In this document: positions 34,576-61,968 of the stretch, one piece after another | How the letters are laid out: each line of letters starts with the position of its first letter | How positions within the stretch are numbered: the first letter of the stretch is position 1 | From: a virus | Taxonomy: Duplodnaviria; Caudoviricetes | Length of the DNA: 64,000 nt | Reading direction: 5' to 3' (one strand) | Virus record (IMG/VR): IMGVR_UViG_2645728028_000002 | Coordinates: 32,001-96,000 of that record | Program-made: the position numbers and the translations under genes | The notes under the pieces: generated by a model | Told to the model about the DNA's origin: nothing | The model's database searches: none | What the model saw: the letters and a program-made list of their open reading frames with translations, nothing else

Positions 34576-35289
34576 ATGAGACAAATAGAAAACATTTGGA
34601 CATTGGTTTATAAAGAAAAGAATGAAGATCCACATGCACACAGTTATACATCTGAAAGTGATGCACTTGAAGCTAAAGAATTTATTTTAGACGCTGACGG
34701 TGGAGAAACATTTGATGGTAGCATAGTTGAAATAGAATGGTGCTATTTGATTCAAGGTAAACTAATAATTAAATCAATTTAAAATTAACTTTTTAACGAG
34801 AAAAGGGGGTTACATATTGAATCAATATATTATTGAATTAACAAGGAATATCGGAATAGGTAAAGATATAATTAATTTCTTTACTAACAGAGGATATAAG
34901 GTTGTTTGGGAAGATCGGGATGCAATGCCTAAAACATTAATAATTGAATCATCACATCATTGTATTGAGGACATCAAGAATCTTAAATACGTATCAGATG
35001 TAAAGGAAGTAAGAACAGGTAGTATATTCGTATAAACTACACATTTTATTAGATATCTAAGGAGGAAAGTATGATAAAGAAACTACAGGCAGTTTTTGAA
35101 TATTTATGGTACTCATTATTTATACATATCCTGTTATTAGGATTTATTTATACGACAAATGAAGGCAAATTATATAACTTATGGACTATCTTTATTACAT
35201 TTCCTTTATTTGCGATTTGCCTTTATAAAATTAATACGCATTTTAAGAAAGGTATGGATCAAATGAAAGATTCTTTGAAGAATAATTAA
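34576..35289 (+). CDS. Three small hypothetical genes (34576-34782, 34817-35035, 35071-35289 membrane)
   Basis: Each has an RBS and is bounded by the 18-bp junction motif. Confidence 0.6.
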
Positions 35290-35460
35290 GATAAAAACTA
35301 ACTTTCATTAAGAGCCAGTAAAAGGCTCCTTCTTTCTGAAGGTGCGTTAAATTTTATTATAACTTTTTATAAAAATTTACCAAAACTCTATTGACCAAAG
35401 GAAAACTTTGTTATAACATCATTATTGTAAGAAATAGCAAAACAAACAAAATTTGGAGGT

Positions 35461-36156
35461 ATGTGGAAGATGGGATTGTTCACGAGTAAGATAGCTATTG
35501 GAGTTTTAGCAGGTGGATTTACATTAGCTGGTGCAGGGTTATTGTTCAACGGAAGTGAGACTTTAGAGAGAGCCAGTTCATTTGTTCAGGATGCCGGAAA
35601 TAAAATTACACAATTTGAAGTTGCAGAAAACGCACTCCTCGATAAAATTTCATTCTTGAAGAATGATGCTAACTCTAAAATTGAAGCAGCAAACGCAACT
35701 ATTGCAGATAAGAAAGCAGAAATTGAAGGATTGAATACACAGATCACTGATTTAACATCACAAAGAGATGCCTTAACTGCAGAAGTTGCTACACTAGAAA
35801 CAGAGATTACTAATTTAACAGCAAGCTTGAATGATGCTAATGCTAACCTTGAAGCTACTCAAGCAGCATTGGATGAAAAAACAGCTCAGTATAATGCGAA
35901 AGTCACTGAGTTACAAAAAGCCAACAACACAATTGCAGAACTTAATAACTTGCTAGTTTGGGCTAAGAACAAAGCACAAGAAGCTGATAGTCATGTGGCG
36001 CAACTTGAGGCTGAAGTCCAGAAGGCTAACGCTGAGGTAGCAGCTCACGGTGAGGTAGTTGAACAAGTCGAAACACAAACAGAAGGAGCAGATCCACTGA
36101 GTCAGGAAGAAGTTGATGCCGTTGATACAACTATTGCTGACGTTGATACAGAATAA
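35461..36156 (+). CDS. Membrane-anchored coiled-coil protein
   Basis: N-terminal TM helix then a long heptad-rich Ala/Glu/Thr region. Confidence 0.75.
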   Translation: MWKMGLFTSKIAIGVLAGGFTLAGAGLLFNGSETLERASSFVQDAGNKITQFEVAENALLDKISFLKNDANSKIEAANATIADKKAEIEGLNTQITDLTSQRDALTAEVATLETEITNLTASLNDANANLEATQAALDEKTAQYNAKVTELQKANNTIAELNNLLVWAKNKAQEADSHVAQLEAEVQKANAEVAAHGEVVEQVETQTEGADPLSQEEVDAVDTTIADVDTE

Positions 36157-36226
36157 TTCTCTAATGTATAATGAGGATAGGGTGAGGGTTATAACTTCAC
36201 TCTATTTTCTTATAAGGAGAGAGTTT

Positions 36227-36454
36227 ATGGAGGTCGAACGCAAAATAAGGAAGATTGGTAACTCATCTGGTATTATCCTCCCAACTGATTATTTAAGATA
36301 TATTGGAGTAGAGATCGGGGATACGGTATATATAACTATGGAAGAGAATGAGATCAGGATCAGAAGTGAAAAAGGAAAAGAAACCAATGACGAGTTTAAA
36401 GATAAAGTGTTAGCTATAATTGAAGAATACATGGGTAAAGAAGAGTCTAAATAG
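36227..36454 (+). CDS. AbrB/MazE-family DNA-binding protein
   Basis: KIRKIGNSSGIILP...IGVEIGDTV; start at MEVER after AAGGAG. Confidence 0.85.
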   Translation: MEVERKIRKIGNSSGIILPTDYLRYIGVEIGDTVYITMEENEIRIRSEKGKETNDEFKDKVLAIIEEYMGKEESK

Positions 36455-37025
36455 GCTCTTTTCTTTTTGGATTAATTTAGAAAAAGTTAAAAGTAAATGA
36501 AAATAATGGTTGATTAATATGAAATAATTTTATATAATTAAATTAAGAAGTAAAACAAAGGAGTGATCAAGATGACTTATGAAGAATATGTCTTAGATGT
36601 ATTTACGGAGCATCATTTATCTGTGGGGCAAGACTTAGAGGAAATTAAAGATGTTATTAGGGAAGCTTCTTTTAAAAAAATTGAGAAATGGTTAACTAAA
36701 ATAGGGTATGATCTTAATGAATACAATTCATTATAAAAATTTGATTTAAATGGTAAAATTATCTCAACTACAAGTGAAAGGATGATAAAAATGTATAAAG
36801 TGTATGCGTTGGATTTTGATCAAACAAGAGTGATTAACATTATTGATACTATTGAAGAAATTAAGGAATGGGCAGAGATTAATGGCTATACAATCACTAA
36901 AATTATCAATAGGAAATCAAAACAAATCATAAAATTATAGGGTAGGCTAATTGTATAACTTAGAATAAAATTTCCCTTTTATGGAGAATTATTTGGTAAA
37001 ATTTAATTAAAAAGGAGAGAAAAAA

Positions 37026-38584
37026 ATGGCTGCCGATTACTTAACACATATTAATGATGAGGATCTTATAAAACTTTACGAAGAAATTGGAGAAAGAAGA
37101 TCATGTGGAGACTTTAACCAGCGAGATGAAGATATTCTAGTTGTTTCTGCAATGTCAAAAAGAAAATTAATTCACTTGTCAAAATTCAATAGAGGCTTAC
37201 CTAAATCAGAGAAATGGCGTTAAAACCATTTTCCAATAAAACTTCTCTTTTAATGGGAAAAGGAGGAAAGAAAATGCTTGAAGGAAATACAATTAAATTT
37301 GGACATGGGACTGTACTGGTATATTCAAGTCAGTTAACAAGGAAGGTGATTTTAGAATTTATTCAACCACCAAAGCCAGTAGGAAAACTGATCAAAGAAG
37401 ATATTGAAGATGTTGTAGTTTTAGACTCAATTACATTTGATTATGGAAAAGATATGAAGCCATTTTATGAAGAATTGCAGCAAGTAAGTGAAAATAATAC
37501 TATCTTAGAATTTAGAGGATATGTATTTGATTTCTCTAACTACAATCCAGCATCAGTAGAGGTTTTAATGGGTGGATTTAAACGAGCAATTACAGGAAAT
37601 ACACTGACGTTAGCTTGTTAAATAAGGAGGGTATAAATGATTACAAGTGGAATGTTAGAAGAGCTTCTTGAGAACATCGATAAACCAAAGCAGCCAGATC
37701 TAATTGTAGAACAAAAGAAAAATAAATACATTGCCTACTTTAGAAAGAGTCCTCAAAGAATTGGGTTTGGAAATTCAGAAGTTAAAGCATTGGAGAATTT
37801 AAAGAGTTTATTAGGATAGGGAGGAAATTAAAAATGCATAAAAAGGTTAAGTTACATGGATGCGAGTTATATGAGATCACATTAGGAGAGAAGAAATATA
37901 TTTGCACAATTGAAAATGTAGATATGAATGAATATTACGCATATCATGAAAGAGGAGAAGGAACTTCAGTAGCTATGTTAAATACAGTGGATATTGTTGA
38001 ATTAATGACAACTGGAAGCATTGACAGAAAACATATGACTGTAAAGCCATATAATAAGTAAATAAAACAAGTCTCTTATCGCAATTTCACATCATTACGT
38101 GCAACTGCACGATATGATAATCACTATATAATAACTATTTTAAAGGGAGAGAGAATAATGAAAATCTTATTAATCGAAAATGAAATTGTTAACTTTCTAC
38201 ACGTAAATAACATTAGACCAGCACTGAATCCAAGTAGTAAAATGTATAAAATCAAGGTTGAAATGGTAAACGGATCTGCATTTGAAACATTAGATAATTA
38301 TACAAAAGGTGAAGCAGAAGAAAAAATCCTTGAGATTTCAGCTCTGTTAGCAAGTAGCCAAAATGAAGTAATTATACAGTAGGGGGGTGATTAGTGTGTT
38401 GTTAAATCCATGGGTATGGGACTCTGCAGCGCAAGAAAAGTATCCAGACAGGGTTACAGGTGAATCAGTACCATTAGAATATCTAAATGAAGGCTATTCA
38501 GAATATTATCCATATACAAGCTGGATTACTAAAGGGTACGTTAAACGAATTGAATTAAAGGAATATGCTACAGAGTTACTATAA
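37026..38584 (+). CDS. Cluster of small hypothetical genes (37026, about 37274, 37637, 37834, 38158, 38387)
   Basis: Consecutive plus-strand ORFs with RBSs. Confidence 0.6.
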
Positions 38585-38772
38585 GGAGGGTTAATGATGG
38601 GTGAGTTAATATTTGGAATAGTGTTTATCAGTTTGTTTTATGTGATTGCTGCAGTATGTACGATGTTTAAATTAGATCCAACAAAATTATTTAAAATAAA
38701 TTAATCAAATATAATATACAAATAAAAGTTAAAGTGGTATAATTTACATATCAAGTAAAGGGAGAGGATAAT

Positions 38773-39312
38773 ATGAAATTTAAGAAAGAATTTATTTTAA
38801 AAAGACAAGGATATGATCCAGTTAAGGTAGTTGTAAAAATTAACGACAACAACATTTACATAAGAACATTCGCAGAAATTCACTTTCTAGATCTTGCTCA
38901 CTTATTATGTGAAAAAACTCCACTATTAGAAGTAGTTTACGAGAGGTCAGCACCTTACAAACTTGTTAAAACTAAGCATAGAGAAGGGGATAAATTCTCT
39001 TACAAAGAATATGGCTTAACTTATTTGCTCATTAAAGATGGAATAATTAAAGAAGAAACCAAACATCTTATTAATTTACACACAGTTAATACAAAAGTAA
39101 AAGGAACTAGAAATATGTTTATTCCAGACTTATTGCTGGTTATGCAGGATTACGGATATGTAAAAGAAACTGGTAGTGGTAAATTTAAAGCAGCTAGAAA
39201 ATTCAGTGATCATGTTGTATTTGAAGATCTAACATTTAGTCCAGAAAATTTAAGAAATCAAGGATTTATTATTCCTAAAAAGTATGAGGAGAAATTTGCT
39301 TTAAAATTCTAA
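38773..39312 (+). CDS. Hypothetical protein
   Basis: 179 aa, RBS and upstream TG-TATAAT. Confidence 0.7.
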   Translation: MKFKKEFILKRQGYDPVKVVVKINDNNIYIRTFAEIHFLDLAHLLCEKTPLLEVVYERSAPYKLVKTKHREGDKFSYKEYGLTYLLIKDGIIKEETKHLINLHTVNTKVKGTRNMFIPDLLLVMQDYGYVKETGSGKFKAARKFSDHVVFEDLTFSPENLRNQGFIIPKKYEEKFALKF

Positions 39313-39337
39313 TTTTATACAGAATAGGGGAAGGTAT

Positions 39338-39795
39338 ATGAATAAATTTACATGGAAAAACGTAATTCATGGTGAACATGCATTGAGATTTGGACATATT
39401 GATAACTTCTTTAATCAAATTGTTGTACCTTCTGGTTATCCATACTTTATTTGGAACGATATAATTTATAGGGTTGAGGATAGATATAGTAAGAATCGCT
39501 TTACAGATACAGGTTGCACAATTAATGATATAGAAGGATAAAATGCTGATTGTATTATGAAAGGAGTATTCAAATGAGAATTATTAACGAACACTTTGAT
39601 CCGTTTATGTCATTAGTAAACTATGATTATACAACGGATGAATATATTATTGTTACACAGGAATGGGATAAACACGCAGGAAACTACTGGGGAAGAAGTG
39701 TAGAGGAATTTAAAAGTCAGGAAGAAGCCGAAAAGTGGTTGAAAGAATATAGAAAACAAATGGAAATTGAGGAGCACAACCAAATAAAAATCTGA
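39338..39795 (+). CDS. Two small hypothetical genes (39338-39541, about 39574-39795)
   Basis: RBSs; stop codons fall inside junction motifs. Confidence 0.6.
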
Positions 39796-40014
39796 TTTTA
39801 AGGGGAAAGGATGTGAAGATAATGGTCATGTTTGTACTTCATGAAGATGGCTCTGATTTCTTTAATTTTAATATTGAACCACGACAATATAAAAAAGGGG
39901 AAATCATTGAACATGAAAGACTTGAGGGCAAGTTTAAAGTTTTGCACACTGACTTAGTTACGGTAACGGTAAAGCCAGTCTAAATAATATATCCATTTTA
40001 AAGGGAGGAATTAA

Positions 40015-40674
40015 ATGAATATAGACCTGTTAATTGATGCAAAAGAAAAGAAGTGTACAGATTGTCTTGAAGCTTTCCCTGCAACGGAAGAATATTTTTA
40101 TAAACAAAAGACTCATACGAAAACTAAGGGTACATTTTATAAGTTAAGTTCTCATTGTAAGACTTGCACAAAGAAGCGAACACTAAAATATCAACAAGAA
40201 AATCCAGAGAAACATAATGAGGCACAAAAGAAATATCTGTACGGTACAGTAAAAGGAAGAGAAACAAGAAAAAGAAATTTGGATAAATGGGTTTTAAACG
40301 GAGGATATAAAGATTGGCAACAGAATAATAGAGATAAAATTGTAGAATATAACAAAGATAGAAGACATAAGAATCATGATATAACTGATCAAGAATGGTT
40401 TGAATGTCTCGATTTCTTTATGAATTCGTGTGCATATTGTGGAATATCTGAAAATGAAGCGTTAATCTTATATAATCAAAGATTAAACATGGAGCACGTA
40501 GATGATGACGGGGCTAATGACATAACTAATTGTGTTCCTGCTTGTAAGAGTTGCAATAGTAAGAAGTGGACTTTTGAATTGAATGAATGGTATAACACCG
40601 ACAATCCAGTGTATAGTAAAAGAAGATATAATAAAATAATCAAGTGGCTATTAAGTTTCACAAAGAAAGATTGA
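40015..40674 (+). CDS. HNH endonuclease
   Basis: CAYCG...MEHVD...NCVPACKSCNSKK plus N-terminal CxxC pairs. Confidence 0.85.
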   Translation: MNIDLLIDAKEKKCTDCLEAFPATEEYFYKQKTHTKTKGTFYKLSSHCKTCTKKRTLKYQQENPEKHNEAQKKYLYGTVKGRETRKRNLDKWVLNGGYKDWQQNNRDKIVEYNKDRRHKNHDITDQEWFECLDFFMNSCAYCGISENEALILYNQRLNMEHVDDDGANDITNCVPACKSCNSKKWTFELNEWYNTDNPVYSKRRYNKIIKWLLSFTKKD

Positions 40675-40705
40675 TTTCATTACAAATAAAAAGGAGTGAT
40701 TTACA

Positions 40706-41130
40706 ATGAATGGTGAATGGACGTATGCAAACTTAAATGGTGAATGGGAACATGAATCATATTACACAAAGGAAGACGCTGTTCAGGCAGGAAGACTGGA
40801 GTTTAATGGAGAATTTCTTGTTGGACAGTTGAATGGTGATGACGAGGAATTAGAATACTTGGTTGAAAATATTGAAGAAATAGAATAAAAAATATAATTT
40901 ATTTGAACTGTTGTCAGACTATTTTCAGAAAGGATGGCTTAAATTTGGCACTATGCGATGAATGTCAAATGAATAAGATTCCGAGTGGTTGTGGAGTTGG
41001 TGTTAAAGATTATGAAGTTGTTAAAGGTGTTGGGGTAGTATCCTGCAAATATTTCATGGAGATTAATGGGGACTTAGCAAAAGCTCAGAAAGTCAAAAAT
41101 GAAATTCACGTAAAAAGATATAGTTACTGA
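40706..41130 (+). CDS. Two small hypothetical genes (40706-40888, 40903-41130)
   Basis: ORFs between junction motifs. Confidence 0.5.
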
Positions 41131-41504
41131 ATAAAATGAAAGATATATAGTGACGCACTAGACATAAAATGTGCATTAAGGAGGAATTGAGATTGAATGA
41201 TTTCTTAAATACAGTATCTTTCATAATTTTTATGCTAATCGTTCTTGGAGTTATGAGTTATGCACTAAGTATTTAACTAAGAAGCACTCCAGATTGAAAA
41301 ATAAATTTGATTTAAAATCCATTTAGGATGTGATCCGATGAAAATAAATCAAAGGGTATTAGTTACTGAAGAAGAGAGTCCATTTCACAATAGGGAAGGG
41401 GTAATAACTCAGATTCAGAAATATTACATTACTGTGCAGCTTAATAACTTTCCTTGTGAAATGAAATTTACTGATGATGAATTAACTGTGTTAGAGGATT
41501 CCAC

Positions 41505-42009
41505 ATGTACGCTGTAATTATAAGAACAAAGCGAGGCTATGAACTACAATATAAAGATGATCTAGCAAGTGAGAATGTAACTGGGAAAGAGTATTCGAGC
41601 AATGATGAAATATTGAAACGATCACTGACTGCAGATTGGCAAGAAAGTAATGAAGAAAATGTACTTTGGGTGGCAAAATTGATTGACAATTAATATAAAA
41701 TAATCTAATATTATAAATAAGAACAAGTTGAAAAATAAAAACAAAAATTATTATCCTTAATCACCAATAGGCGAATCCCTCATATACTACAGTATAAACC
41801 ATGAGGGAGAGATTAATATGAAATTACAAGCATTGAACATTAAGAAGTTAAGAAAGAAAAGTATTGCAGCAATTAGAGATATCCTGAAGGCATATAACTT
41901 GAATTATTCTATTGCAGATGACAAAGATAAACTTCTCAGTAAGGTTGAAGAGATCCAGCATTACAGTAGGAAGATAAAAGTGTACTCACGGTATGAAATG
42001 TCCATGTAG
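41505..42009 (+). CDS. Two small hypothetical genes (41505-41693, 41818-42009)
   Basis: RBSs present. Confidence 0.55.
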
Positions 42010-42526
42010 TTGAAAAATAACAGCTTTAGTTATTAAAACAACAAAGGAGAGTTTCAAATGATTAGAGTTAGATATGATATCCCTATTGATGAGTATTATT
42101 TCATCCCTACTGGATCAGAAGTTAAATATCTGGGTACTGAGAAAGGATTCTCTGTAATAGAATATAATCAAATAAAGTATGTAGTGAATGAAGGGTATTT
42201 AGAGAAGGTTGAAGCGTTAGTTGGTTAGCTGCAAGGATTTATTCCTTGCGGTAAATCCATAAATGATTATGGGATTACTGGAAGGAATAAGGTAAAATAT
42301 AACTAAATAATATAATCATTTTAATGGGAGGTTTATAAATATGATACCCGATATCTATGTGGATGAATTATATTGTATAAACTGTGGAAGTGAGGAACTG
42401 TCTTGTGAAGGTTCTTTTCCAAGTGGAGATGAATTCATATGCAAAGAATGTAATGATGTCAACTGGGTAGTAAGAAGGAATGACTAAATAAAAGAATCGT
42501 TTTATAAGAATATAGAGGTGAGGAAT

Positions 42527-42720
42527 ATGGATAGTCAAATCAACGATTGTTTTGTTGATATTGTTGGTAGAAAGCCTACAATTAGGGAAATGTGGTACAT
42601 CACTAACAATCTACCTAAAGAAGTTTATCAACTTTCAAAGCAGTGGGGATCAAATGATACTGAAGTCGCAGTTTAATTTTTAGGTGGATAAAAGACAATA
42701 AAGATGTAATTTGCAATTAA
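42527..42720 (+). pseudogene. Probable frameshifted small gene
   Basis: MDSQIND...QWGSNDTEV stops early, while a shifted frame continues SLIFRWIKDNKDVICN-stop. Confidence 0.4.
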
Positions 42721-42738
42721 GAATTATTACATCGTAAA

Positions 42739-43086
42739 TTGGAGGCATTATCAATGAACACTGAAAATAAGCAATGTATTTTTGAAAATTGTAAAGAGGG
42801 GGTTAGATCAAAGGGACTTTGTAAAAACCATTATGCTAATTATATTTACACTAGGAAGACTAAGGGAATTGATTCAGTTGAAGATTATCTAAGGCTTAAG
42901 AAAAATGAAGAAAAAGAAACAAGCAGTAAATTAAGAGAGCAATACAAATCTCTTGAGAGATACGCTGCGGGAATAAACACAGGGACTAATGCGGGGAGAA
43001 GAGAAAGAGGTAATGCAGGTAAATACAAAAAGAGTGTGATTAATCCTGTGTCAATTAAGAAATCATTAGAACGATTGGATGATTAA
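42739..43086 (+). CDS. Hypothetical protein with C..C...GLC..HY zinc motif
   Basis: CIFENC...SKGLCKNHY, a motif often found N-terminal to HNH nucleases. Confidence 0.6.
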   Translation: MEALSMNTENKQCIFENCKEGVRSKGLCKNHYANYIYTRKTKGIDSVEDYLRLKKNEEKETSSKLREQYKSLERYAAGINTGTNAGRRERGNAGKYKKSVINPVSIKKSLERLDD

Positions 43087-43106
43087 AATAAAAGAAATCT
43101 TTCTTA

Positions 43107-43223
43107 GTGATTTGTACCTTCTAGGGAGGCTGTAGAGTCCTCCATCTGGTTTCATTTCTGAGTTTATAGTTTTGGTTTGAGCGATACTGGTCATATCGCT
43201 CCTGCCTAGAGGGTATGAATCGC
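43107..43223 (+). ncRNA. Putative structured RNA (multi-stem)
   Basis: 19-bp closing stem with G-U pairs enclosing two internal hairpins. Confidence 0.5.
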
Positions 43224-43448
43224 AATAAAATTTTAGATTGATTCGAAAAAGGAGTGAAATGAATGAGAATTGACTATAACCTTGATGTTAATTCTTTATT
43301 GGAAATGAGTCAAAGCAATGCATATTTAGAAAAAGGAGATTCTGTTATTATAATGGATAGAGAAACTGGCGAACGTGTAAAAGCAAAAATCATTAATATA
43401 AAAAAGGATGGAACTTATATTCTAAGTAGATATTAAAGAAGCCAATAA

Positions 43449-43622: not shown

Positions 43623-43688
43623 GATGTCACCCCAGAAGATAATATATCACATGAGATAAAGGAATAAAATATTTGTTTTATAAAGGAA

Positions 43689-45562: not shown

Positions 45563-46732
45563 ATGGATCAGCGATTAACTATTAAACAATTTATCTTAAA
45601 TGAAATTGAAATTAATCCAAGAGGTTATGCTAAAACATTATCAAACATTGCTGGTTACGGTGATAACTCTGGTAACTTCACGAGAATTTTAAAAGAATCA
45701 AAAAAAGAGTTTGATAAGTTTCAAGGTTTGCTTGATTTAGTATCCTATGTGTTTAAAGATGATGAAATTGCCGCCATGATTCGTTACTCAAAAGAAATTG
45801 ATCCGAATAAGAAAACAGCAAGACAAATGTTAGAGTACTTAGCAATTAATAGGGAGTTTGAAGCATTTAATGAACTGTTAGCTTTGATGGAAAATTGCTC
45901 AAATAAGGAAAGTAGGGAATGGGCGAAAGTTTACAAATTGCAATACGAATATCAATTAAGTAGTACACCTGAGCAGTACAATGATCTAGTCAAAAAAGTT
46001 TCTGAAACAGTTGTTACAGTACCAGAACTAAAAGTGTATAAGAACTTACTATTAAATTATTGTTATAATCAAAAGCAAGATTATGTAATGACATTTTCAC
46101 TTGAAAAAGAAACTAGACAAATGATTAGTGATCTAGAAGAGGATTACATCTACAGAATGTATCAGCTAAGATTAAATGAAATAATGTCATATAATTATCT
46201 AAGAGTAATGAATAATCCAGAGTTAGCTAGAGAATATGCAATGAATGCGTTAAATGAAGAGGACTCGTCACCAGCGTTTAAAGCTTATGCATATTTTATA
46301 AAAGGCTATTCATACATGTTCATTTCATTAGAAAAATCAGAAAAATACTTACAACTGAGTAAGTCCCTGTACATTCAATTAAACAGAAAAAAAGACGTAG
46401 AAGATATTGAGAAGAAAATTGAGTTTATAAAGGTGTATTGGGGTAATTTCACTGGTGAAAACTGTGCGCACACAGTTAACGAAATTCTAAGAAAGATAAA
46501 AAATGGAATAGATGTTTCCAGTGACTTAACTGGAGTTACTGAAATTGATCCTGAGTTAAAACTATTTTTGGAAGGATTAAATAGCAACAGCACAAAAAAG
46601 CTAATGTTGTCTTTAATTAAATATACTAAAAAGAACGATTACTTTCTTGCCAATTTGTCTAAAATTGAATTATTAAAACGTGGGGAAGATCAAGATATAA
46701 TTGATGAATTAACCACCTTCAGATTGGCTTGA
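45563..46732 (+). CDS. aimR: Arbitrium receptor AimR
   Basis: 389 aa, N-terminal HTH then TPR-like helices (ARQMLEYL, SREWAKVY, KGYSYMF, DYFLANL); followed by a signal-peptide mini-gene. Confidence 0.88.
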   Translation: MDQRLTIKQFILNEIEINPRGYAKTLSNIAGYGDNSGNFTRILKESKKEFDKFQGLLDLVSYVFKDDEIAAMIRYSKEIDPNKKTARQMLEYLAINREFEAFNELLALMENCSNKESREWAKVYKLQYEYQLSSTPEQYNDLVKKVSETVVTVPELKVYKNLLLNYCYNQKQDYVMTFSLEKETRQMISDLEEDYIYRMYQLRLNEIMSYNYLRVMNNPELAREYAMNALNEEDSSPAFKAYAYFIKGYSYMFISLEKSEKYLQLSKSLYIQLNRKKDVEDIEKKIEFIKVYWGNFTGENCAHTVNEILRKIKNGIDVSSDLTGVTEIDPELKLFLEGLNSNSTKKLMLSLIKYTKKNDYFLANLSKIELLKRGEDQDIIDELTTFRLA

Positions 46733-46751
46733 AAGGGGGTGAAATAATAAT

Positions 46752-46871
46752 ATGAATAAACGTACTTTTATTTTCGCAATCGTATGTGTTGCTGCAGTTG
46801 TAGCAGGGTTTGCATTTGGTAGTGATTTAATGGGAGCTACATATTTGGCTGATCCTAAACCGGGTGGATGA
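46752..46871 (+). CDS. aimP: Arbitrium pro-peptide AimP (39 aa, not in ORF track)
   Basis: AAAGGGGGTG RBS; MNKRTFIFAIVCVAAVVAGFAFGSDLMGATYLA-DPKPGG. Confidence 0.88.
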   Translation: MNKRTFIFAIVCVAAVVAGFAFGSDLMGATYLADPKPGG

Positions 46872-46900
46872 TTTTTAAAATAAAATAATCAAATGTGTTT

Positions 46901-46933
46901 TAATGGGTGCTATCTTATAGATAGTGCCCATTA
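46901..46933 (+). terminator. Hairpin after aimP
   Basis: TAATGGGTGCTATC-TTATA-GATAGTGCCCATTA with G-U pairs, followed by GTATTTT. Confidence 0.7.
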
Positions 46934-46998
46934 GTATTTTATAAGAACTAATCCAAAAATTTAAAAATAAAAAATTGGACTAAAAGGGGAAATGAGAA

Positions 46999-47193
46999 AT
47001 GAAAAACACTGAGTACACTTTGAGAAAATTACAAGCAGCCTATTTAAAAGTTACTTTAAGAAAAGAAATGGGAAACAATGAAGAGACATGTATGTATTGC
47101 TGGAATTCTGGTTGTGGTTGCGATTCAAAAAGTAACGTAAAAACTGATTCATTTATCAGTCTAACTACAGCGAGTGAATTCAAATATGCATAA
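46999..47193 (+). CDS. Small Cys-rich protein in the aimX position
   Basis: First ORF after aimP; followed by a hairpin at 47198-47238. Confidence 0.5.
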   Translation: MKNTEYTLRKLQAAYLKVTLRKEMGNNEETCMYCWNSGCGCDSKSNVKTDSFISLTTASEFKYA

Positions 47194-47345
47194 GGGGTTT
47201 AGATGGTGTTAAGAAACTGATCTTAATTCCATCTAAACTTATTTTAGTTTTTATTAAAATTATTTAATTTAATACTAGACAATTGGAACTACAACTGATA
47301 AGATTAGAGTAGTTAATAAAACTATTTCTAAGGAGGTGTGTCTCA

Positions 47346-47573
47346 GTGTCTAGTACAGTAGTTTCATTGAGAATATATAAACTTGAGAAACAATATAAAG
47401 ATCATTATAGAACAACTTATGCAAGCTGCGCTAATTTTGGATCAGTAAAGGATGCAGGAGTATTTAAAGCTAAAGTAAAAAGAACACCAGAAGAGATTAA
47501 GAAAGAACTTACATTGGGTTACATGAAACTACTATCAAATAATCAAATAGGGAGTGTTGGTTGTGAAGGTTGA
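47346..47573 (+). CDS. Hypothetical protein
   Basis: AAGGAGGTG RBS. Confidence 0.55.
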   Translation: MSSTVVSLRIYKLEKQYKDHYRTTYASCANFGSVKDAGVFKAKVKRTPEEIKKELTLGYMKLLSNNQIGSVGCEG

Positions 47574-47762
47574 GATTAATGGGGAATTGATTGCACCTGA
47601 AGGAATGACACATGAAGAACTGTTAGATTTATTGTTTAGTGAGTTAAAAAGTAAGGGTGTGCATTTTCGAGGAGAGACTAAGCAGGGGAATTAATACATA
47701 AGAGTATAGATGGACTGTCTTAAAAATTATAATTTTATAAGGAAATGGGGTGAGAATTAACC

Positions 47763-47957
47763 ATGTCTGAATATGAAAAGTGTAAAAGTGACATTGTGTA
47801 CTTTGCTGAGAAGTTTTTAGATTGTACTTTAGCTGAATGGCAAAGAGATTTACTGAGAAGATTTCATAAAGGTGAAGAGTTTATTTTCTCTAGAACAGGA
47901 AAAGGTAAGAAGATGGTTATTTCTGCAATGAATCAGTACAACAAAGTATTTAAATAA
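47763..47957 (+). CDS. 64-aa protein resembling the N-terminal part of a terminase ATPase
   Basis: EYEKCKSDIVYFAEKF...LAEWQRDLL...SRTGKGK. Confidence 0.55.
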   Translation: MSEYEKCKSDIVYFAEKFLDCTLAEWQRDLLRRFHKGEEFIFSRTGKGKKMVISAMNQYNKVFK

Positions 47958-47971
47958 AAGGAGGTATTTAT

Positions 47972-49691
47972 ATGGAAGAGTACTATTTAATCTTTAATGA
48001 TGGAGAAGAAGAAATTCTTAAGTTACATGTTTACCATGAAGAACACTACGCTAAAGAAGAAATTTATACAATTGTAAAAAAAATTAGCAAAAAATGCTTT
48101 GAAAAGTATGGGGAAAATGTAGAGGAATGGCTTTATAAAAATTACATTCAATATGCCCTTACTCATGATTATGATTTTACTTATAATCAACCAGTAAATA
48201 TTTTTAAGTATGAAATGACAGATAAGTATTTGGATTCATTAAATTAGAATATAAGATTTTATAGGAAAGGAGAAAATCCAGTGGAGTCTTTATTTAAAGA
48301 AGAAAGTATAATTAAATCAAAAACTAAAAAAGTGGATTCAAAGGTGATTCTGCAGTTCAAGTCTTTAGGTTTAGATTTTCATCCAGACACATTTGAGCAT
48401 TTTAGGGGAAACGACTCAATTTATTTAGATGCGTTGAGGGAGATTGATACTCATATAAGAGCAACCAAAGATCCAGTTCCTTTTATTATTGATACATTGA
48501 AAAAGACTTTGCCAGAATATAATGATCAGCACACAAATAGGTTATAATCATTACGGGTGATTAGAATGAATAAAAACGACTTAGCAAATAATCTTACTAC
48601 ATTACTGAATACAAAATTAGACTATTCAGGTGAATTTAACACGCTATTCTTCATCGAAAAAGATCAAAATGGAACGGTAATTAAATTTCTAAATAAAGAC
48701 CACTATAACTACATATTGAAACACTTGAGAGGTGAGCTGGTTGATGTAATTGGTGGAGAAGTAAAAGTAACTCATTTAAATCTTGAAACATCTCCAGTCA
48801 CTATGAAGAACTTCGAGAATGCTAAAGGAATAACAGTTAGACCTATTAGCCCAATTAAGAAAGAAAAGGTTGAGTTGCCTACAATAAGGAATAGAACAAT
48901 TAAGGAAATAGAGAAATTTTTGTCTGATGAATTTCATGTGCTTATGGAAAAACAGCAAGAATTAAGAGATCAGCATGAAGACTATATTGAAAAATTGCAA
49001 TATGCATATAACTATGGGGAGGTTGGATTTCTTGTCAAACTAAATAGCTATCTGCAGAAAATTAAAGATTATGAGGAGGAGTGAAATATTGATAGCTAAA
49101 GATGAATATGTTTTGAAGAGAATCAAGTCGACTGTTAATCATCATATTGAGAAGAAATCAAAATTAAATCCAGATAGTCTAATGAATTATATCGAACAAT
49201 TAGAGTTTGACTATGATATGGAGAAAGCATACAGACCTGAAGTATTAATGAAGGAGAATGACAATGAGTAGAAAAGGAATGGATATCAAACAACTGAATG
49301 AATTTATGAAGAAATGCAGCGAGAAATATAATGTAAGATATGTAACTCCAACTATTCATCCAAAATTTAAATCAGCTGTTGCAGTCACAATACATACCAG
49401 TGATGAGAGTATGGAATTTACAATAACAAATAATCCTGATGAGAATTTTGATTTGAATCAATCAGTTAATAAGTATCTAGATAAGTTGAATTAATTAAAT
49501 GTAGGAGGTTTGTAATGTATAGGTGTTATTTAAACGGTAAATTTTACGGCACTGGAAACTTAAAGTATATGCAGGAGTTATTTGTTGATTATGTAGTTAC
49601 TTGTGAGATGTATGGAAAGAATCAGGCTGAATTTAAAATCATAAAGTTGTGGAATGAAGGCGAAGAACCAATAGGGACTACTGATGTCTAA
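47972..49691 (+). CDS. Cluster of small hypothetical genes (47972, 48281, 48557, 49071, 49258, 49515)
   Basis: Consecutive or overlapping plus-strand ORFs with RBSs. Confidence 0.6.
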
Positions 49692-49722
49692 ATAAATTAT
49701 CAGCTTTATAAGGAGTGATATT

Positions 49723-50433
49723 ATGAGGAAAGATTCATTTAAAGCATTGGTAGGATCACACAATTACAATCTGAACACGGATGATTCCGATAAAGACTAT
49801 AAGGTTTTCTTTTATCCATCATTCGATGACTTGTATTCAGGAGAGAAGTATTCTAAAGTAATGACTGGAGAAACAGAAGATGTTGAGTATCATGATATCA
49901 GGAAGCTGCCTGATATGCTGTGGAAGAGCAATGTGAATTTCTTAGAAGTTTTATTTTCAACTGAAATAATTGAATACGATGGGCTATTTAAAGAGATACA
50001 AAGCAAACGTGAGTATATCGCAAGTATGAATCTACCTTGTCTATACGATGCTTGCATGGGAATGTATTTTAAGAAAAAGAAAGAATATGAAAGAGATGTG
50101 TTAAAAGGTGAATGGAAGAAAGTATACAAGCATGTAATGTCAGCAGTAAGAATTGTGGATTTCTTACAAAGATATGAAAGTTCAAATTGGAACTTTTCTA
50201 AAGCTATTACATATCAAGATCATGAGTATATGAGAGGTACATTATTAAATATTAGAAATGGTCAATATCAATCTGACAATGAGTTGGATGTTTTTATTGA
50301 AGGATCAGAAAAACTTATGGCTGCCATTAAGGGTGTGTATAAGAACAAGAAAGAAGATTTAACAACTAAGGAATGGCTCTATAAGACTGTTAAATGGGAA
50401 GTTGAAGAGAAAATATTTATGGAATTGCAATAA
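49723..50433 (+). CDS. Pol-beta-superfamily nucleotidyltransferase (YcgL/NrdC.11-like)
   Basis: VGSHNYNLNTDDSDKDYK = GS...DxD motif; NVNFLEVLFS. Confidence 0.8.
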   Translation: MRKDSFKALVGSHNYNLNTDDSDKDYKVFFYPSFDDLYSGEKYSKVMTGETEDVEYHDIRKLPDMLWKSNVNFLEVLFSTEIIEYDGLFKEIQSKREYIASMNLPCLYDACMGMYFKKKKEYERDVLKGEWKKVYKHVMSAVRIVDFLQRYESSNWNFSKAITYQDHEYMRGTLLNIRNGQYQSDNELDVFIEGSEKLMAAIKGVYKNKKEDLTTKEWLYKTVKWEVEEKIFMELQ

Positions 50434-50467
50434 AACATTTATATTATCGTGAATTGGAGGATATAGG

Positions 50468-51817
50468 ATGAATTTTAAAAGTATTGATCTTGTATTGGAA
50501 AACTGTGAAGTAATAACAGTTGAACGTAAGTATATGGGGCATCTTTATATGTCGAACTTTAACACTACAATTTCTAGGCATGATAAAAAACTTTTGAGCA
50601 GCGAAGTGGTTAATGAGTTTGCAATAGAAATACACAGAAGTTTAGACGAAACTACAAATAAACAAGGATTGTTTGATAAGTATAGTCCAATTGAGAGGTT
50701 GAGAAAGTATTCTGACATAACGCAAATTGAAATTACATACGAAGATAATAGCAAGAAGCATGTCTATACTCATTGGCATGATGAAGACGAATATGATAAT
50801 AGGTATCAAAAAAGTAAATTAAATAATTTTGGAGATTTATATATTGTCATTTCTGAAGCTAAGGATATTGATTACTATTTTCAAGATGAGACAATAAACG
50901 ATTCAGATATGGTGGAATGGAACTGGGACAATTTTAAGGAGGGTAAGTTGTGACTGGTTATTATGTTTTGGCTTCCGTTGAGTGTAATATGATTTATGCT
51001 ATGCACAATAAAGTATACCTAACTGAAGGAATGGCTAGAGGCGCTTTGAAGTTACTATGTAAGTTTAATAGAAATAAATATGAAAATTATGAGGTTTGGG
51101 GAATAAGTGACTTAACAAAAATCACTAAGAAATGATCCATTTATAGGAGGAATATATAATGAGTAAAGAAACATGGAACAAAGGTTATCAAGAGGTCAGA
51201 AATGTTATTCATAACGAGATAGGTATAACAAAGGAAGAAGTATTGAAAGTATTTCAACAAGTAGCAAAAGACGAAATTCAAAAGATTGTTTCTGAGAAAA
51301 GTGGGTTTATCTATCAATCTATAAAGGAAATAATTAGTCACGAGATGATAAAGGCAATTCAAGATCACAAATATCCAAAACTAACAGGGAGCCTGTGGTA
51401 TTATGGGCATGAAGGAAGAGGTATAGACACATTTAAAGATTATGTGTCAGGTGTGATGAAAGAAGAGATAGTGAAAACTTTAAGTGAGCAATTTGAAATT
51501 AACCTAAATGTAAATAAAAAGTAGATTTCATGGTGAAATGAGGGGAAGAAATGAGTAAAGCAATTAACTCAATAAATAAAGTCATTGATGAGGTTAGAAT
51601 ACTTGAAGAAGAAATTAGAGAATTAAAAAGAGACAAAACACAGGCTGAGGCTTTTTGTGCAACTGTGATAAAGAAGTATGGAGAGAAAGTTGATATTGAG
51701 ATAAATTTACTTGAAATTTTTAAGAGTGATTTTGAAAAAGTCAAACTTTATCCGACTGTGGAAAGTAAATTGAATGTTAAAGTGAAATATATTGAAGAGA
51801 AAGATGAGACAAATTAA
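50468..51817 (+). CDS. Four hypothetical genes (50468, 50950, 51159, 51551)
   Basis: RBSs; separated by junction motifs. Confidence 0.6.
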
Positions 51818-52161
51818 TTTATCTCATCCATAAGTTTAATAATCAAATTCAATTGTTCATCAGATAGTTTCCTTGCCTTAAGTAATAATTCCTGTTCTGT
51901 CTCACTTAACACTTTATCAGCGCTATTATTAGAATTTACATAACCAGTTAACACCATCAACTCATCATAAGATACGTTAAGAAGATGCTGCGAAAGAGTT
52001 TTCAGTGTCTGAGGATCAGGTTTCTGAGTATTGTTTTCAATTCTAGTCACAGTTGCATTAGATATTCCAGATTTAATTGCAAGTTGTCTAGCACTTTTAT
52101 ACCCACTAGAGATTCGAATTTGTTTAAAGGATTCACCGAAAGTATTTTTCATATTTATCAC
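51814..52161 (-). CDS. XRE HTH regulator
   Basis: FGESFKQIR...SARQLAIKSGISNATVTRIEN...PDPQTL. Confidence 0.8.
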   Translation of the reverse strand: MINMKNTFGESFKQIRISSGYKSARQLAIKSGISNATVTRIENNTQKPDPQTLKTLSQHLLNVSYDELMVLTGYVNSNNSADKVLSETEQELLLKARKLSDEQLNLIIKLMDEIN

Positions 52162-52199
52162 CAGATTAATTTTAACATAATGGAAGGTGAGGTGAGAAC

Positions 52200-52553
52200 T
52201 TGTTTAAAGTTGTGGTTGCTGGAGGAAGAGATTTTAATGATTATGAGTTACTAAAAGAAACATTGAATCACCTATTACAAAAGAAATTACCTGATGTTGA
52301 AATTGTCTCTGGAGCAGCAAGAGGAGCAGATTCACTTGGAGAAAGATACGCACAAGAACTTGATTTAAGTTTACATAGAAAACCTGCATATTGGGAGAAA
52401 TTAGGCAAAAGTGATGGATACAGAAGAAATGCTGAAATGGCTAAATATGCAGATGCAGCAGTTTGTTTTTGGGATGGAAAAAGTAAGGGAACTAAACATA
52501 TGATTGACCTAGCTGAGAAAGAAGGATTGCAAATTAAAGTAATTAAATATTAG
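52200..52553 (+). CDS. SLOG-superfamily protein (YspA/DUF2493-like)
   Basis: VVVAGGRDF, IVSGAARGAD, RRNAEMA, FWDGKSKGT. Confidence 0.82.
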   Translation: MFKVVVAGGRDFNDYELLKETLNHLLQKKLPDVEIVSGAARGADSLGERYAQELDLSLHRKPAYWEKLGKSDGYRRNAEMAKYADAAVCFWDGKSKGTKHMIDLAEKEGLQIKVIKY

Positions 52554-52565
52554 GGGAGTGTAAAC

Positions 52566-52808
52566 ATGAAGTATGAGACTTATGAACAAGTAACAAGTGC
52601 CTTTAAGAATGAAGGGTATAAGATCTTGGCAGAGAGTAATGACTTATCTTGGGTTTATATGTATAAAATTGATCAGATTAGAAAAAATGTGACACTTGTT
52701 TCTTGGTATGAATCTGATGGAGAGGTGCAAAGAATTTCAAATATTGAAGACTTTTTATTAATGGATATATTAGATGAAATGGGTTATAAGGGATCTATTT
52801 CACTATAA
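52566..52808 (+). CDS. Hypothetical protein
   Basis: GGGGAG RBS. Confidence 0.55.
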   Translation: MKYETYEQVTSAFKNEGYKILAESNDLSWVYMYKIDQIRKNVTLVSWYESDGEVQRISNIEDFLLMDILDEMGYKGSISL

Positions 52809-52823
52809 TAGAACGATTTTATC

Positions 52824-53282
52824 TTGAAAGGAGAAGAAATGAAATTAATTTTTCTTGATATAGATGGAGTTATGAATAATTGGATCGAGAGTCAACCATC
52901 AAACAAGCACGAGAGTTTAGAGTTTGCTTCCAGTTGTGTGGAAAATCTCAAGTATATTTTAAAGGAAACCAACGCAAGAATAGTTGTTTCATCAACTTGG
53001 AGAATTGGTGAAACTGAAAAGACACTTAAGGATAAAGTATTTAAACATTATGATCTAGAAAAATACATACTTGATGTTACTCCAGTTTGTTGGGAAGAGC
53101 CAAGAGGCGTTGAGATTGCTTCATATTTAGCAAGTTTACATATCTGCAATGTCGAAGGAATAGTAATCTTAGATGATGATTCAGATATGGAGGATTTAAA
53201 GGATTATTTAGTGAGAACAGATCCAAAATACGGATTGACTAAAAAAGACGCTGAATTAGCAATTCAAATCTTAATCAAATAA
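52824..53282 (+). CDS. HAD-superfamily phosphatase (Swiss-army-knife RNA-repair-like)
   Basis: IFLDIDGV, VVSSTWR, RGVEI, ILDDD. Confidence 0.82.
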   Translation: MKGEEMKLIFLDIDGVMNNWIESQPSNKHESLEFASSCVENLKYILKETNARIVVSSTWRIGETEKTLKDKVFKHYDLEKYILDVTPVCWEEPRGVEIASYLASLHICNVEGIVILDDDSDMEDLKDYLVRTDPKYGLTKKDAELAIQILIK

Positions 53283-53419
53283 TGCTTTTAAAGGAAGGAG
53301 GAGATATATATTATGTGGCTAACATTTTGGGAAGCACTTTCTCAATCTAAAGAAGGTGATGTAATCGAGTGTGAAGCAATCTACAGTAACATAGTTAACA
53401 ATGGGGATTATACGTTCAT

Positions 53420-54420
53420 GTGGGAAGAAGAATGGAAACCAGTTGTTTTAAGAGGAGAATATATAGGAATGAAGTGGAGAATAAAATAATCAAACAAGGG
53501 AGCATACATATGAAGACGATGGATAAGAATCTGTTCATTAAATGGGCAACTAAGCGTATGGAGTTTCTAAAGGATAGAATTGATAGAGATTTTGGTGGAG
53601 GCTTGGTTGATGATTTAGGAAAGTTTAATGAGATTAAGATGATCAAGGAAGCTGCTGAACGTGGTGAGTTTGATATAAAGGTTTGGGAGTGATACATAGT
53701 GACGTTATGGTTCATGTTTATGGCTGGAATATTGTATTTGTTTAGACTTGATGAACTAGCAACTAATGGAGTAAATGAGTTAATAGGAAAGAAATTTACA
53801 ACATCAATTTACTGGTTAACATTTTTAGTTATCGGATTAGTGTTGGATATTGTTTATGGGATTGTGAATTTATTCAGTTAAAATCTTTATTTTACTTAGA
53901 AAGGAGTGAGAAAAATAATACATTTAGCTGCTATTTTAATAGGTATTGTAATTATAGGAGCGATAATTTATTTATTCAACAAACCAGAAATCTTGTTTTA
54001 CATAGTTATCGGTTGTTTTGCACTAGGATTTGCTTATATCTTGGGTGGATCAATACTAGGAATTTTATAGATAATAACAGTGTTTTATAAGGAGTTGATA
54101 TTATGACAAAAGAAGAATTATTAAATAGAAAAGAAGCATTAGAATTAGAAATTCAAAATATAGAAAAACAGCTAAGAGTAATGACCAACCTAGAAAAGCC
54201 ATATGTAGCAAATGTTTCAGCCTATAGCGGTCATTACTCTATGCAATACAAAACAGAAGCACAAGCTAGAAAGAAACTTAATGAATATGCAGCTAAAACA
54301 TATTTCAAAAATGGATTAAATTATGGAGTGTATCTGTATAAATGGAATGAAGATGGATCTAAAACGTTACTAGAGAGTATCCCATTAGGACGAAAGAACT
54401 TTGAGCCTAGTTTAGATTAA
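53420..54420 (+). CDS. Cluster of small hypothetical genes, some membrane (53420, 53699, 54103)
   Basis: ORFs between junction motifs. Confidence 0.55.
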
Positions 54421-54664
54421 GATAATATTCATGTTTTATAGTGAGGAGAGTGAAAAATGGTTAATATTCTATACAGTATAGTAGGAATATTTATTATCTA
54501 TATAGTTATTGCGATTTTGTGGCAGCTAGCAGAATTAAGACTTTATGGAAAAATAACTCCAAGAAAATTAGATGGTTTAGTAGCAATAATTCTGGCTGTG
54601 TCACTGTTCTTTAACTTAAAATAGTGATATGATACAAATAGTTACTAATCTGAGGTGATTATTT

Positions 54665-55018
54665 GTGACAAAGTTTAAAGATAATCTTTTAATACTTAGA
54701 AAAGATAAGGGTTTAACACAAGATGATGTTGCGCAATATTTGCAATTATCTAGACCTGCATATAGCAGGTATGAGACTGGTGGAGCAGAACCAACTATAG
54801 AAAATCTAATGCTGCTTGCTGATCTATATAATATATCTCTAGATGAATTAGTGGGTAGAGATTTTAAACAAGATAGTAAAGGGCTGCAAACCATACTTGT
54901 TAGAAAACAAATCGATATTCAGCTTAGAGGAATTCTACAAGAAACAATTAAAGAAATAGTTGATGAAAAAGAAAATGAAATTCGAGACACTGTTTTAAAG
55001 AAATTTGGGTTGCAATAA
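54665..55018 (+). CDS. XRE HTH regulator
   Basis: LRKDKGLTQDDVA...SRYETG..EP..E. Confidence 0.85.
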   Translation: MTKFKDNLLILRKDKGLTQDDVAQYLQLSRPAYSRYETGGAEPTIENLMLLADLYNISLDELVGRDFKQDSKGLQTILVRKQIDIQLRGILQETIKEIVDEKENEIRDTVLKKFGLQ

Positions 55019-55118
55019 AAGAAGACATTTATTAAGAATTTAAGATCTGCAGCAATGTGGATCTTTTTATTTTGGTTAAAATAAGTAAAAGTTTCTTAGA
55101 AAAACATTCCAATTTTGC

Positions 55119-61929: not shown

Positions 61930-61968
61930 AATAAAAAGGCGATTTGATTTGAAAAAGGAGATGAAAAA

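Follow-up and report, generated by a model that had tools for sequence, protein, structure and literature searches.

Position-specific palindromes at the gene junctions of an SPbeta-like prophage as candidate joints for in-register gene exchange

Phage genomes are mosaics, and their mosaicism is usually explained either by homologous recombination at conserved linkers or by illegitimate recombination followed by selection. The 64,000-nucleotide stretch of DNA analyzed here, called the window (positions 32,001 to 96,000 of IMG/VR virus record IMGVR_UViG_2645728028_000002), belongs to an SPbeta-like prophage in which short palindromes, consisting of two inverted arms around a variable 6-bp core, lie at most junctions between small accessory genes, and this raises the question of what such palindromes do. 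The first-pass annotation had taken them for the sites of an integron-like system that inserts, excises, and shuffles gene cassettes. Their comparative behavior points instead to position-addressed recombination joints; on balance, we consider that they are probably heterospecific sites for site-specific recombination, at which related phages would exchange genes in register.

The palindromes are real and phage specific. The consensus WTAAWA-N6-TTTTAW has 32 strand matches at 21 positions in the window, compared with 2.7 ± 2.1 in dinucleotide shuffles, and none of 100 shuffles reached 32, which confirms the enrichment expected from the first-pass annotation. The 6-bp spacing is strict: TAAAA-Nx-TTTTA occurs in the window 13 times at x = 6 and 0 to 2 times at each other x from 0 to 14, and the 160 kb around the prophage contains 33 copies at x = 6 versus 1 to 7 at other spacings; the prophage of about 120 kb has 34 copies, versus 0 to 4 at other spacings. 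No peak at x = 6 is found in the remaining 5.3 Mb of the host (60 copies, versus 34 to 76), and the swapped-arm control TTTTA-Nx-TAAAA gives no spacing peak. Outer positions are conserved too (T-Y-N3-W-TAAAA-N6-TTTTA-W-N3-R-A), and by these positions the motif is longer than the 18 bp first described, at about 28 bp (11 + 6 + 11). Among the arms, ATAATA (left) and TTTCAT or ATTTAT (right) are recurrent variants, TTTCAT being found at window positions 35291, 45000, and 51514.

A weight matrix 28 bp wide, used with a cutoff score of ≥9, places 33 of its 36 matches in 33,600 to 64,000 and only 3 in 1 to 33,600, in agreement with the earlier remark that the long core operons lack sites. The matrix recovered 27 of the 34 array coordinates originally listed; the other seven (36733, 39538, 40663, 43954, 48245, 51127, and 54616) have two to three or more arm mismatches and are indistinguishable from background, and real sites absent from that list include 47954, 61931, 63062, 7964, and 28117. 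The placement of the sites relative to genes is as initially described, with the upstream stop codon (TAA, in the left arm) inside the 18-mer at 15 of 33 sites and the next start codon typically 1 to 25 nt past the right arm. The units between sites were also said to be mostly promoterless, which does not hold for all of them: many have no obvious promoter, but sigma-A-like promoters lie inside the array at about 35390, 36510, and 38740. The motif itself contains neither a –35/–10 pair nor a G+C-rich stem with a T-run.

The same element is found throughout most of the SPbeta-like phages. TAAAA-N6-TTTTA is present in 30 to 37 copies each in SPbeta, phi3T, Goe11, Goe13, Goe14, and SPbetaL8, with 0 to 4 copies at N4, N5, N7, and N8, and every one of the 34 SPbeta sites is intergenic or overlaps a TAA stop codon; some lie at divergent or non-transcript-internal places (e.g., 57148 and 39886). 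Geobacillus virus E3 has 30 copies, Bacillus phage vB_BcoS-136 has 23, and two prophages of the window's own host genus, G058 and G019, have 41 and 26, while Brevibacillus phage Sundance has none. Psychrobacillus phage Perkons (MT325768) carries 17 TAAAA/TTTTA copies and 10 of a TGAAA-N6-TTTCA variant, which also occurs 5 times in KKP_3916 (OQ846916); the degenerate form TRAAA-N6-TTTYA reaches 52 and 14 copies in these two phages, versus 3.8 and 1.0 at other spacings. The variant arms in Perkons and KKP_3916, together with TTTCAT in the window, suggest that the binding protein tolerates A or G at arm position 2. Only generic stem_loop and palindrome features are annotated in the SPbeta GenBank record, and the motif is not mentioned in the SPbeta literature examined, a comparison that did not extend to the original genome paper (Lazarevic et al. 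1999). The palindrome is thus a real family-wide element, undescribed in the SPbeta literature examined.

The six-base core behaves like an address tied to its position. No core is repeated within any of 10 genomes, reverse complements counted, and none of the 209 distinct cores is self-complementary, compared with 4.5 expected; in each of the 10 genome pairs tested, all shared cores are collinear (19/19 to 30/30). We then examined how sequence similarity behaves around the sites in the SPbeta family, a comparison of six genomes that are not independent of one another and whose gene calls are crude. Strict sites account for 16% of 1,418 unique ends of blastn high-scoring segment pairs (HSPs), versus 1.9% of random positions. 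HSP starts are concentrated at –9 to +2 and HSP ends at +13 to +25 relative to the 16-mer, indicating that both the left and the right homologies span the whole 16-mer. It had been asked whether breakpoints between relatives fall in the 6-bp core; breakpoints of gene gain, loss, and replacement do fall at the sites, but they cluster at the edges of the 16-mer. At same-strand gene junctions, a breakpoint is present at 81 of 128 (63%) with a site and at 138 of 586 (24%) without one (odds ratio of 5.6), and among perfectly identical modules of ≥400 bp, 12 of 14 ends coincide with site edges.

The core is retained when the genes beside it change. Where homology is confined to the left flank, 67 of 74 site pairs have identical cores, as do 70 of 82 where it is confined to the right flank; a further 80 distinct site pairs have identical cores with neither flank homologous. 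In these last pairs, identity is 1.0 over the 16-mer and, by 25 bp to either side, is down to about 0.3, as for random sequence. Addresses of SPbeta and phi3T with unrelated sequence on both sides include 69424/62423 (TGCATA), 88400/80190 (AGACTG), and 118470/109320 (GTTTTA). Judged from these alignments, the core is a label of the position and not of the cassette, since it survives replacement of the gene on its left, of the gene on its right, or of both and is always collinear. A single address is found inverted: phi3T (KY030782) has TTATCA at 89340, where SPbeta (99498), Goe13 (90020), and Goe11 (90554) have TGATAA. The left flank of this site is homologous, and the inversion could have arisen by exchange with an inverted partner or by the flipping of a segment.

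The same pattern is seen at the window itself. The closest relative found, L071, is a 21-kb locus of a 77-kb assembled contig, with an AimR 72% identical to that of the window. Window 36966 to 55016 and L071 3612 to 18632 share 16 collinear site pairs, 13 of which have identical cores (0.45 expected by chance) and 3 of which are one base off. By blastn and tblastx, similarity is absent from 8 of the 15 intervals between shared addresses, partial in 6, and complete in 1; those without similarity include 47955 to 50431 (2.5 kb versus 0.5 kb in L071) and 50431 to 52806. At 39984, 42307, 53274, and 54422, the cores are identical even though one of the two genomes has a degenerate arm where the other has a perfect one, so that conservation of the core between orthologous sites is, on this comparison, no lower than that of the arms. 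With more distant relatives, three collinear cores are shared with G058 and five with the SPbeta family (0.7 to 0.9 expected); addresses appear to be common within exchange groups and not universal. The sites are listed below in window coordinates, with no strand assigned unless stated.

3997-4014: junction palindrome in the late region, core TCAGTA; exact match; core and adjacent bases also in the G019 prophage
7964-7981: junction palindrome, core GTTCTT; exact match on both strands
28956-28973: junction palindrome, core CTGGTA; exact match; matrix score 22.1
34779-34796: junction palindrome, core TTAACT, upstream stop in the left arm; identical 18-mer in SPbeta at 82016
35032-35049: degenerate site, left arm TAAAC, stop codon inside; matrix score 9.1
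35291-35308: degenerate site, right arm TTTCA; matrix score 12.6
36965-36982: junction palindrome, core TTTCCC; matrix score 24.4; core as at L071 3612, the first collinear anchor
37236-37253: junction palindrome, core CTTCTC; matrix score 23.7
38062-38079: degenerate site, core CAAGTC; matrix score 13.9
38126-38143: degenerate site, left arm TATAA, directly before the ribosome-binding site (RBS); matrix score 16.9
39301-39318: junction palindrome, core TTCTAA; matrix score 20.8; the 16-mer and 7 further bases recur in SPbeta at 131162 and in its relatives, with unrelated flanks
39784-39801: junction palindrome, core ATCTGA; core also at L071 4599 and in G009, a genome of another species of the host genus; a blastn match to L071 begins exactly here
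39984-40001: site, left arm TAATA, core TATCCA; core as at L071 4799, there with a perfect TAAAA arm
40885-40902: degenerate site, core AATATA; identical 16-mer at L071 6299
41131-41148: degenerate site, core TGAAAG; core as at L071 6738
42307-42324: site, core TAATCA; core as at L071 8151; interval to the next site without similarity to L071
42488-42505: junction palindrome, core GAATCG; identical 16-mer at L071 8365, neither side similar
43088-43105: degenerate site, core GAAATC; GAAATT at L071 8604, one mismatch
43664-43681: junction palindrome, core TATTTG; exact match; core collinear in the G058 prophage
45000-45017: degenerate site, right arm TTTCA, core CAGTGA, stop codon inside; matrix score 11.8
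47721-47738: degenerate site, core TTATAA; core one base different at L071 12580
47954-47971: site, core GGAGGT, new to the list; matrix score 16.1; core as at L071 12947; the following 2.5 kb without similarity to L071
50430-50447: site, core CATTTA; core as at L071 13430
51514-51531: degenerate site, right arm TTTCA; matrix score 12.6
52805-52822: site, core GAACGA; core as at L071 15377
53274-53291: site, core TAATGC; core as at L071 15685
53878-53895: junction palindrome, core TCTTTA; matrix score 18.4
54071-54088: site, core ACAGTG; ACAGAG at L071 17034
54422-54439: site, core TTCATG; core as at L071 17296
55015-55032: last array site, core GAAGAC; identical 16-mer at L071 18632, an isolated 40-bp blastn match
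60870-60887: junction palindrome, core TCAGTG; exact match
61931-61948: degenerate site; matrix score 12.1
63062-63079: site, core AGATTG; exact consensus match, plus strand
63358-63375: junction palindrome, core CATACA; exact match; matrix score 19.9

These properties can be accommodated in a model of position-limited exchange. The inverted arms (TAAAA/TTTTA and the outer bases, about 11 bp each) would be the binding sites of a dimeric phage protein, and the six bases between them would be the crossover region. Because each position has its own asymmetric core, the only productive partner of a site would be its positional counterpart in a related phage, whether co-infecting or resident as a prophage. 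A single exchange would yield an in-register chimera and two exchanges a swap of the genes between two addresses, so that gene order and genome length class would be kept, and deletions or inversions within one genome would be avoided. As the left-arm TAA serves as the upstream stop and the RBS follows the right arm, any left module could be joined to any right module without harm to expression. An orientation-defining crossover region would need cores that are not self-complementary, as is the case for all 209. We regard it as possible, though short of probable, that SPbeta-like phages practice a natural form of recombinase-mediated cassette exchange of this kind, with about 35 to 50 unique 6-bp addresses per genome and a YopP-like recombinase acting on them.

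A close formal parallel is man-made. In engineered heterospecific lox and FRT sites, used with Cre and Flp, inverted arms enclose a short asymmetric spacer and only identical spacers recombine; a segment flanked by two different spacers is therefore swapped in register without deletion. The phage sites appear similar in that each core is unique, asymmetric, and specific to its position, with cassettes replaced between one core and the next. They differ in scale and dimensions, since the engineered systems have 13-bp arms, 8-bp spacers, and two or three variants, whereas the phages have about 35 to 50 addresses with 5- to 11-bp arms and 6-bp cores. Among natural systems, the dif modules of Acinetobacter plasmids are also comparable: 28-bp pdif sites (11-bp arms, 6-bp center) bound accessory modules that differ between relatives, so that many Xer-type sites punctuate an accessory region, and tyrosine recombination was likewise deduced from comparative data (PMC6449649). 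However, pdif sites are used by host XerC/XerD, have two different arms, and alternate in orientation, and the modules take their sites to new plasmids and positions (PMC6449649), whereas the phage sites have identical inverted arms, a core fixed to its position, an invariant order, and a candidate enzyme encoded by the phage. The PeSL elements of T4-type phages are composite promoter-terminator sequences of about 50 to 70 bp; they too are short conserved intergenic motifs beside variable small early genes of hyperplastic regions, at the boundaries of insertions, deletions, and replacements, but they are thought to act by homologous recombination between similar copies, also at different positions, which gives mini-circles (PMC2839356, PMC4122927). 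The phage palindromes are not of this class, having no promoter, no terminator, and a unique core at each position.

The candidate enzyme is encoded next to the array:

55407-56456, plus strand: YopP-like XerC-type tyrosine recombinase, 349 residues, the candidate enzyme; Pfam Phage_integrase and Phage_int_SAM_1

A recombinase at 55407 had been named before. The gene adjoins the array, and its product is catalytically intact: R173, K199, H256, R259, H282, and Y291, read from the family alignment, are all present, and this R-K-H-R-H-Y set makes the protein a plausible cognate recombinase. A sequence search of the PDB with the protein gave no match at an E value of ≤0.01. The comparison of the arm-6 bp-arm layout with Xer-type tyrosine-recombinase sites was likewise sound, as the palindromes have the inverted arms, strict 6-bp spacing, and arms of about 11 bp with outer T-Y and R-A of Xer/Cre-type sites. 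Their centers are asymmetric, and on the comparative evidence they are identical between partners even where the flanks of orthologous sites are unrelated. YopP-like homologues are encoded by every SPbeta-like phage examined, and no function is assigned to YopP in the SPbeta literature examined. SPbeta integrates by the serine recombinase SprA (PMC8612738), so that the YopP-like enzyme is not needed for integration. The window prophage presumably integrates by its own serine recombinase; integration would be left to the large serine recombinase at the prophage end and catalysis at the palindromes to the YopP-like protein. We infer that crossovers would be enzyme catalyzed at the core and that the YopP-like protein would be the enzyme for the sites.

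Several observations weigh against this model. Its support is comparative, drawn in large part from the six interdependent genomes with their crude gene calls and from one close relative, a 21-kb metagenomic locus, and core sharing with distant relatives is only slightly above chance. The strongly conserved part of the arm (5 to 6 bp) is short for a recombinase-binding element, with the outer positions only partly conserved, and the fixed placement relative to the stop codon and RBS could mean that the sites act in expression as well, or instead. In SPbeta, G058, and others, the second catalytic Arg is replaced by Lys. YopP-like genes are also present in Sundance, which lacks the motif, and in KKP_3916, which shows it only weakly. 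Across lineages, YopP-like and MrpR-like proteins co-occur in all, motif-less Sundance included, and YopQ-like proteins and AimR are absent from some motif-bearing phages, a distribution that singles out none of them as the binder. In the four genomes of laboratory hybrids between phi3Ts and SPbeta, all parental switches but one fall in tracts of 1.4 to 18 kb in which the two parents do not differ; these crossovers can be explained by ordinary homologous recombination, and a site-specific step is neither needed nor revealed. The remaining switch, from SPbeta to phi3Ts at about 53,993 to 54,013 of Hyb3phi3Ts-SPbeta (MT366948), has neither a long shared tract nor a palindrome nearby.

The hybrid crossovers in long identical tracts also speak for the main rival reading, in which the palindromes would be duplex docking sites for a dimeric phage regulator or nucleoid-type protein that silences, insulates, or organizes the early region. 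The binder could then be the YopQ-like protein listed below, an unspecified helix-turn-helix (HTH) protein, or the YopP-like protein acting as a mere binder, and the mosaic breakpoints would be secondary, with relaxed homologous recombination by phage annealases resolving at islands of 16 to 28 bp as the sole remaining identity.

56549-57904, plus strand: YopQ-like DndB/ParB-type protein, alternative candidate site binder; Pfam DndB

Half-site centers 11 bp apart suit an HTH dimer as well as a recombinase, the sites are fixed relative to the stop codon and RBS, and MrpR provides a precedent in the SPbeta family for a recombinase fold acting as a pure DNA binder (PMC10516654); in addition, yopQ and yopP are transcribed in lysogens, and deletion of yopQ gives a lysis phenotype (bioRxiv 10.1101/2021.11.22.469490). 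Nevertheless, we think a docking role rather unlikely. A spacer that is not read by the binder should be the least conserved part of the site, yet the core is conserved at least as well as the arms at 39984, 42307, 53274, and 54422 and is identical even when both flanks are unrelated. Stretches of 16 to 28 bp are very short for homologous recombination, and the lack of self-complementary cores (0 versus 4.5 expected) is left unexplained. As for YopQ in particular, the motif is carried by vB_BcoS-136 and KKP_3916, in neither of which a YopQ-like gene was found.

Two further explanations seem to us highly improbable, and to the same degree. An integron-like system, in which each gene unit would be a mobile cassette with its own site, excised as a circle and reinserted within or between genomes, is suggested by the array of small, mostly unrelated genes bounded by many tyrosine-recombinase-type sites and by the recombinase gene beside it. 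Integron attC sites are imperfect palindromes of 57 to 141 bp that fold as single strands for recombination and move along with their cassettes, which change position, whereas the phage sites are simple duplex-type palindromes of 18 to 28 bp that are fixed in place. Integron cassettes are promoterless and expressed from a common Pc promoter; of the phage units, many have no obvious promoter, but sigma-A-like promoters are visible inside the array. Site identity does not follow the gene; the core is tied to position and kept under replacement of either or both neighbors, in constant order, which speaks against the insertion, excision, and shuffling first proposed. Because no two sites of a genome share a core, excision between neighboring sites is disfavored unless the enzyme ignores the core, and a design with every core distinct would prevent the reshuffling between different sites that had been envisaged; an enzyme tolerant of nonidentical cores, also invoked earlier, is unneeded, as likely exchange partners carry identical ones. 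The other explanation is an RNA element located between stop codon and RBS of the polycistronic early mRNA, either an AU hairpin or a site bound by protein, that would serve processing, stabilization, or translational coupling. The sites do lie in transcribed intergenic spacers directly before the RBS, and one of the six tested folds better than its shuffles (37236, –5.6 kcal/mol, z = –2.1). The other five hairpins, however, do not exceed their shuffles in stability (–0.9 to –2.7 kcal/mol), which also sets them apart from attC-type folds; arm variants and orthologous arm substitutions are never compensated, SPbeta has the divergent and non-transcript-internal sites mentioned above, a scan of Rfam gave no family at the gathering threshold, and the positional conservation of the core would be left unexplained.

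The palindrome also had to be distinguished from a known repeat of the family. MrpR (YopR) of SPbeta is a master repressor with a recombinase fold that binds SPBRE, a 15-bp motif at ChAP-seq peaks (PMC10516654), and its counterpart in the window lies downstream of the YopQ-like gene:

57953-58930, plus strand: MrpR/YopR-like master repressor, a context gene and not the site binder; Pfam MrpR_N_CB and MrpR_C_cat

Like the palindrome, SPBRE is a dispersed intergenic repeat of the SPbeta family with inverted-repeat character and a binder of tyrosine-recombinase fold encoded in the same operon (PMC10516654). From ten published MrpR target promoters we derived SPBRE as about ACAAAAAATATGTATA, placed in promoters. 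An identity of the palindrome with the MrpR operator was rejected, as ACAAAAAATATGTATA is unrelated to TAAAA-N6-TTTTA and its location is different: SPBRE lies at about 10 promoters and is oriented with transcription, whereas the palindrome lies at about 35 stop-to-RBS junctions, where it overlaps the stop codon and precedes the RBS, in most cases with no promoter, and is not placed in the early-operon promoters. SPbeta carries both repeats, which makes them separate systems. The SPbeta palindromes at 76171, 99498, and 129297 are within about 30 to 90 bp of SPBRE boxes (76204, 99589, and 129213/129286), and the MrpR ChAP-seq peaks at aimR, yorE, and yosX would not separate the two. A second dispersed repeat, about TAAWATAAAWTAATYWAAT, has 45 matches at ≤3 mismatches versus 6 expected; in the window it is found at 29024, 29902, 38692, 41691, 45470, 46876, 55155, and 60936 on the plus strand and at 4341, 11491, and 11711 on the minus strand. 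Its copies point in the direction of transcription and occupy the spacer of sigma-A-like promoters (e.g., TTGACT-17 nt-TAATAT at 60921), and both aimR and the yopP operon have copies upstream. The repeat is probably the SPBRE counterpart of this phage, the operator of the MrpR-like repressor.

The window corresponds to C19:2,249,609-2,313,608 of a 5.5-Mb bacterial chromosome, and its G+C content of about 31%, against 40% for the host, marks the prophage. Motif copies extend from window coordinate of about –11,900 to about +101,300 (a span of about 113 kb), and a 530-residue large serine recombinase is encoded at the prophage end, at about +107,300; these positions show that the element is an SPbeta-like prophage of roughly 120 kb reaching past the window. 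The Pfam domains AimR, Phage_integrase, DndB, and MrpR are present in the order of SPbeta (aimR ... yopP-yopQ-yopR), and AimR, the yopP-yopQ-yopR (MrpR) operon, the genome size class (about 120 to 135 kb), and the serine recombinase together are those of SPbeta-like phages. The arbitrium receptor, a marker of this lineage, is the following:

45563-46732, plus strand: AimR arbitrium receptor, SPbeta-like lineage marker; Pfam AimR, E value of 1.5e-54

Since protein identity to SPbeta is only about 30%, the window prophage is, by its predicted proteins, a distant member of the group in a host genus other than that of SPbeta. A megablast search with 8 kb of the window against the phage collection gave no match, an exact-protein lookup with one window gene returned no record, and species-representative genomes of the host genus contain only fragments of about 70% identical DNA. 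In G009 (C11, about 2,061,900 to 2,069,900; element L056), the YopP-like gene is a frame-broken fragment (residues 160 to 335), and the element has only six strict palindromes, five of them within 2 kb just upstream; probably this is what remains of a prophage in decay. Window 31994 to 33601, just ahead of the small-gene array, encodes a 535-residue protein with an N6-adenine methyltransferase-like N-terminal part (Dam, MTS near threshold) and DUF4942. Immediately upstream of aimR, window 44292 to 45011 encodes a 239-residue fusion of an Xre-type HTH domain and a Spo0E-like sporulation-phosphatase motif, which may tie the phage to the sporulation control of its host.

The clean exchange of unrelated genes at gene boundaries is an old question in phage evolution, and defined sites of 16 to 28 bp, position-specific cores, breakpoints at single sites, and a conserved recombinase in the lysogeny operon make it directly testable in SPbeta and phi3T, in Bacillus subtilis 168. 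The sites stand at most accessory-gene junctions and occur across several host genera. If they are position-addressed recombination joints, they would explain how temperate phages of 120 to 135 kb renew their accessory, counter-defense, and lysogenic-conversion genes while keeping gene order and packaging size; related phages in one cell would trade accessory blocks, anti-defense genes included, in register and without scrambling their own genomes. YopP would thereby gain a function, and genome engineering could draw on the sites as a large natural repertoire of orthogonal recombination sites. Should they serve regulatory docking instead, they would still be an undescribed family-wide element that organizes the early region of these phages.

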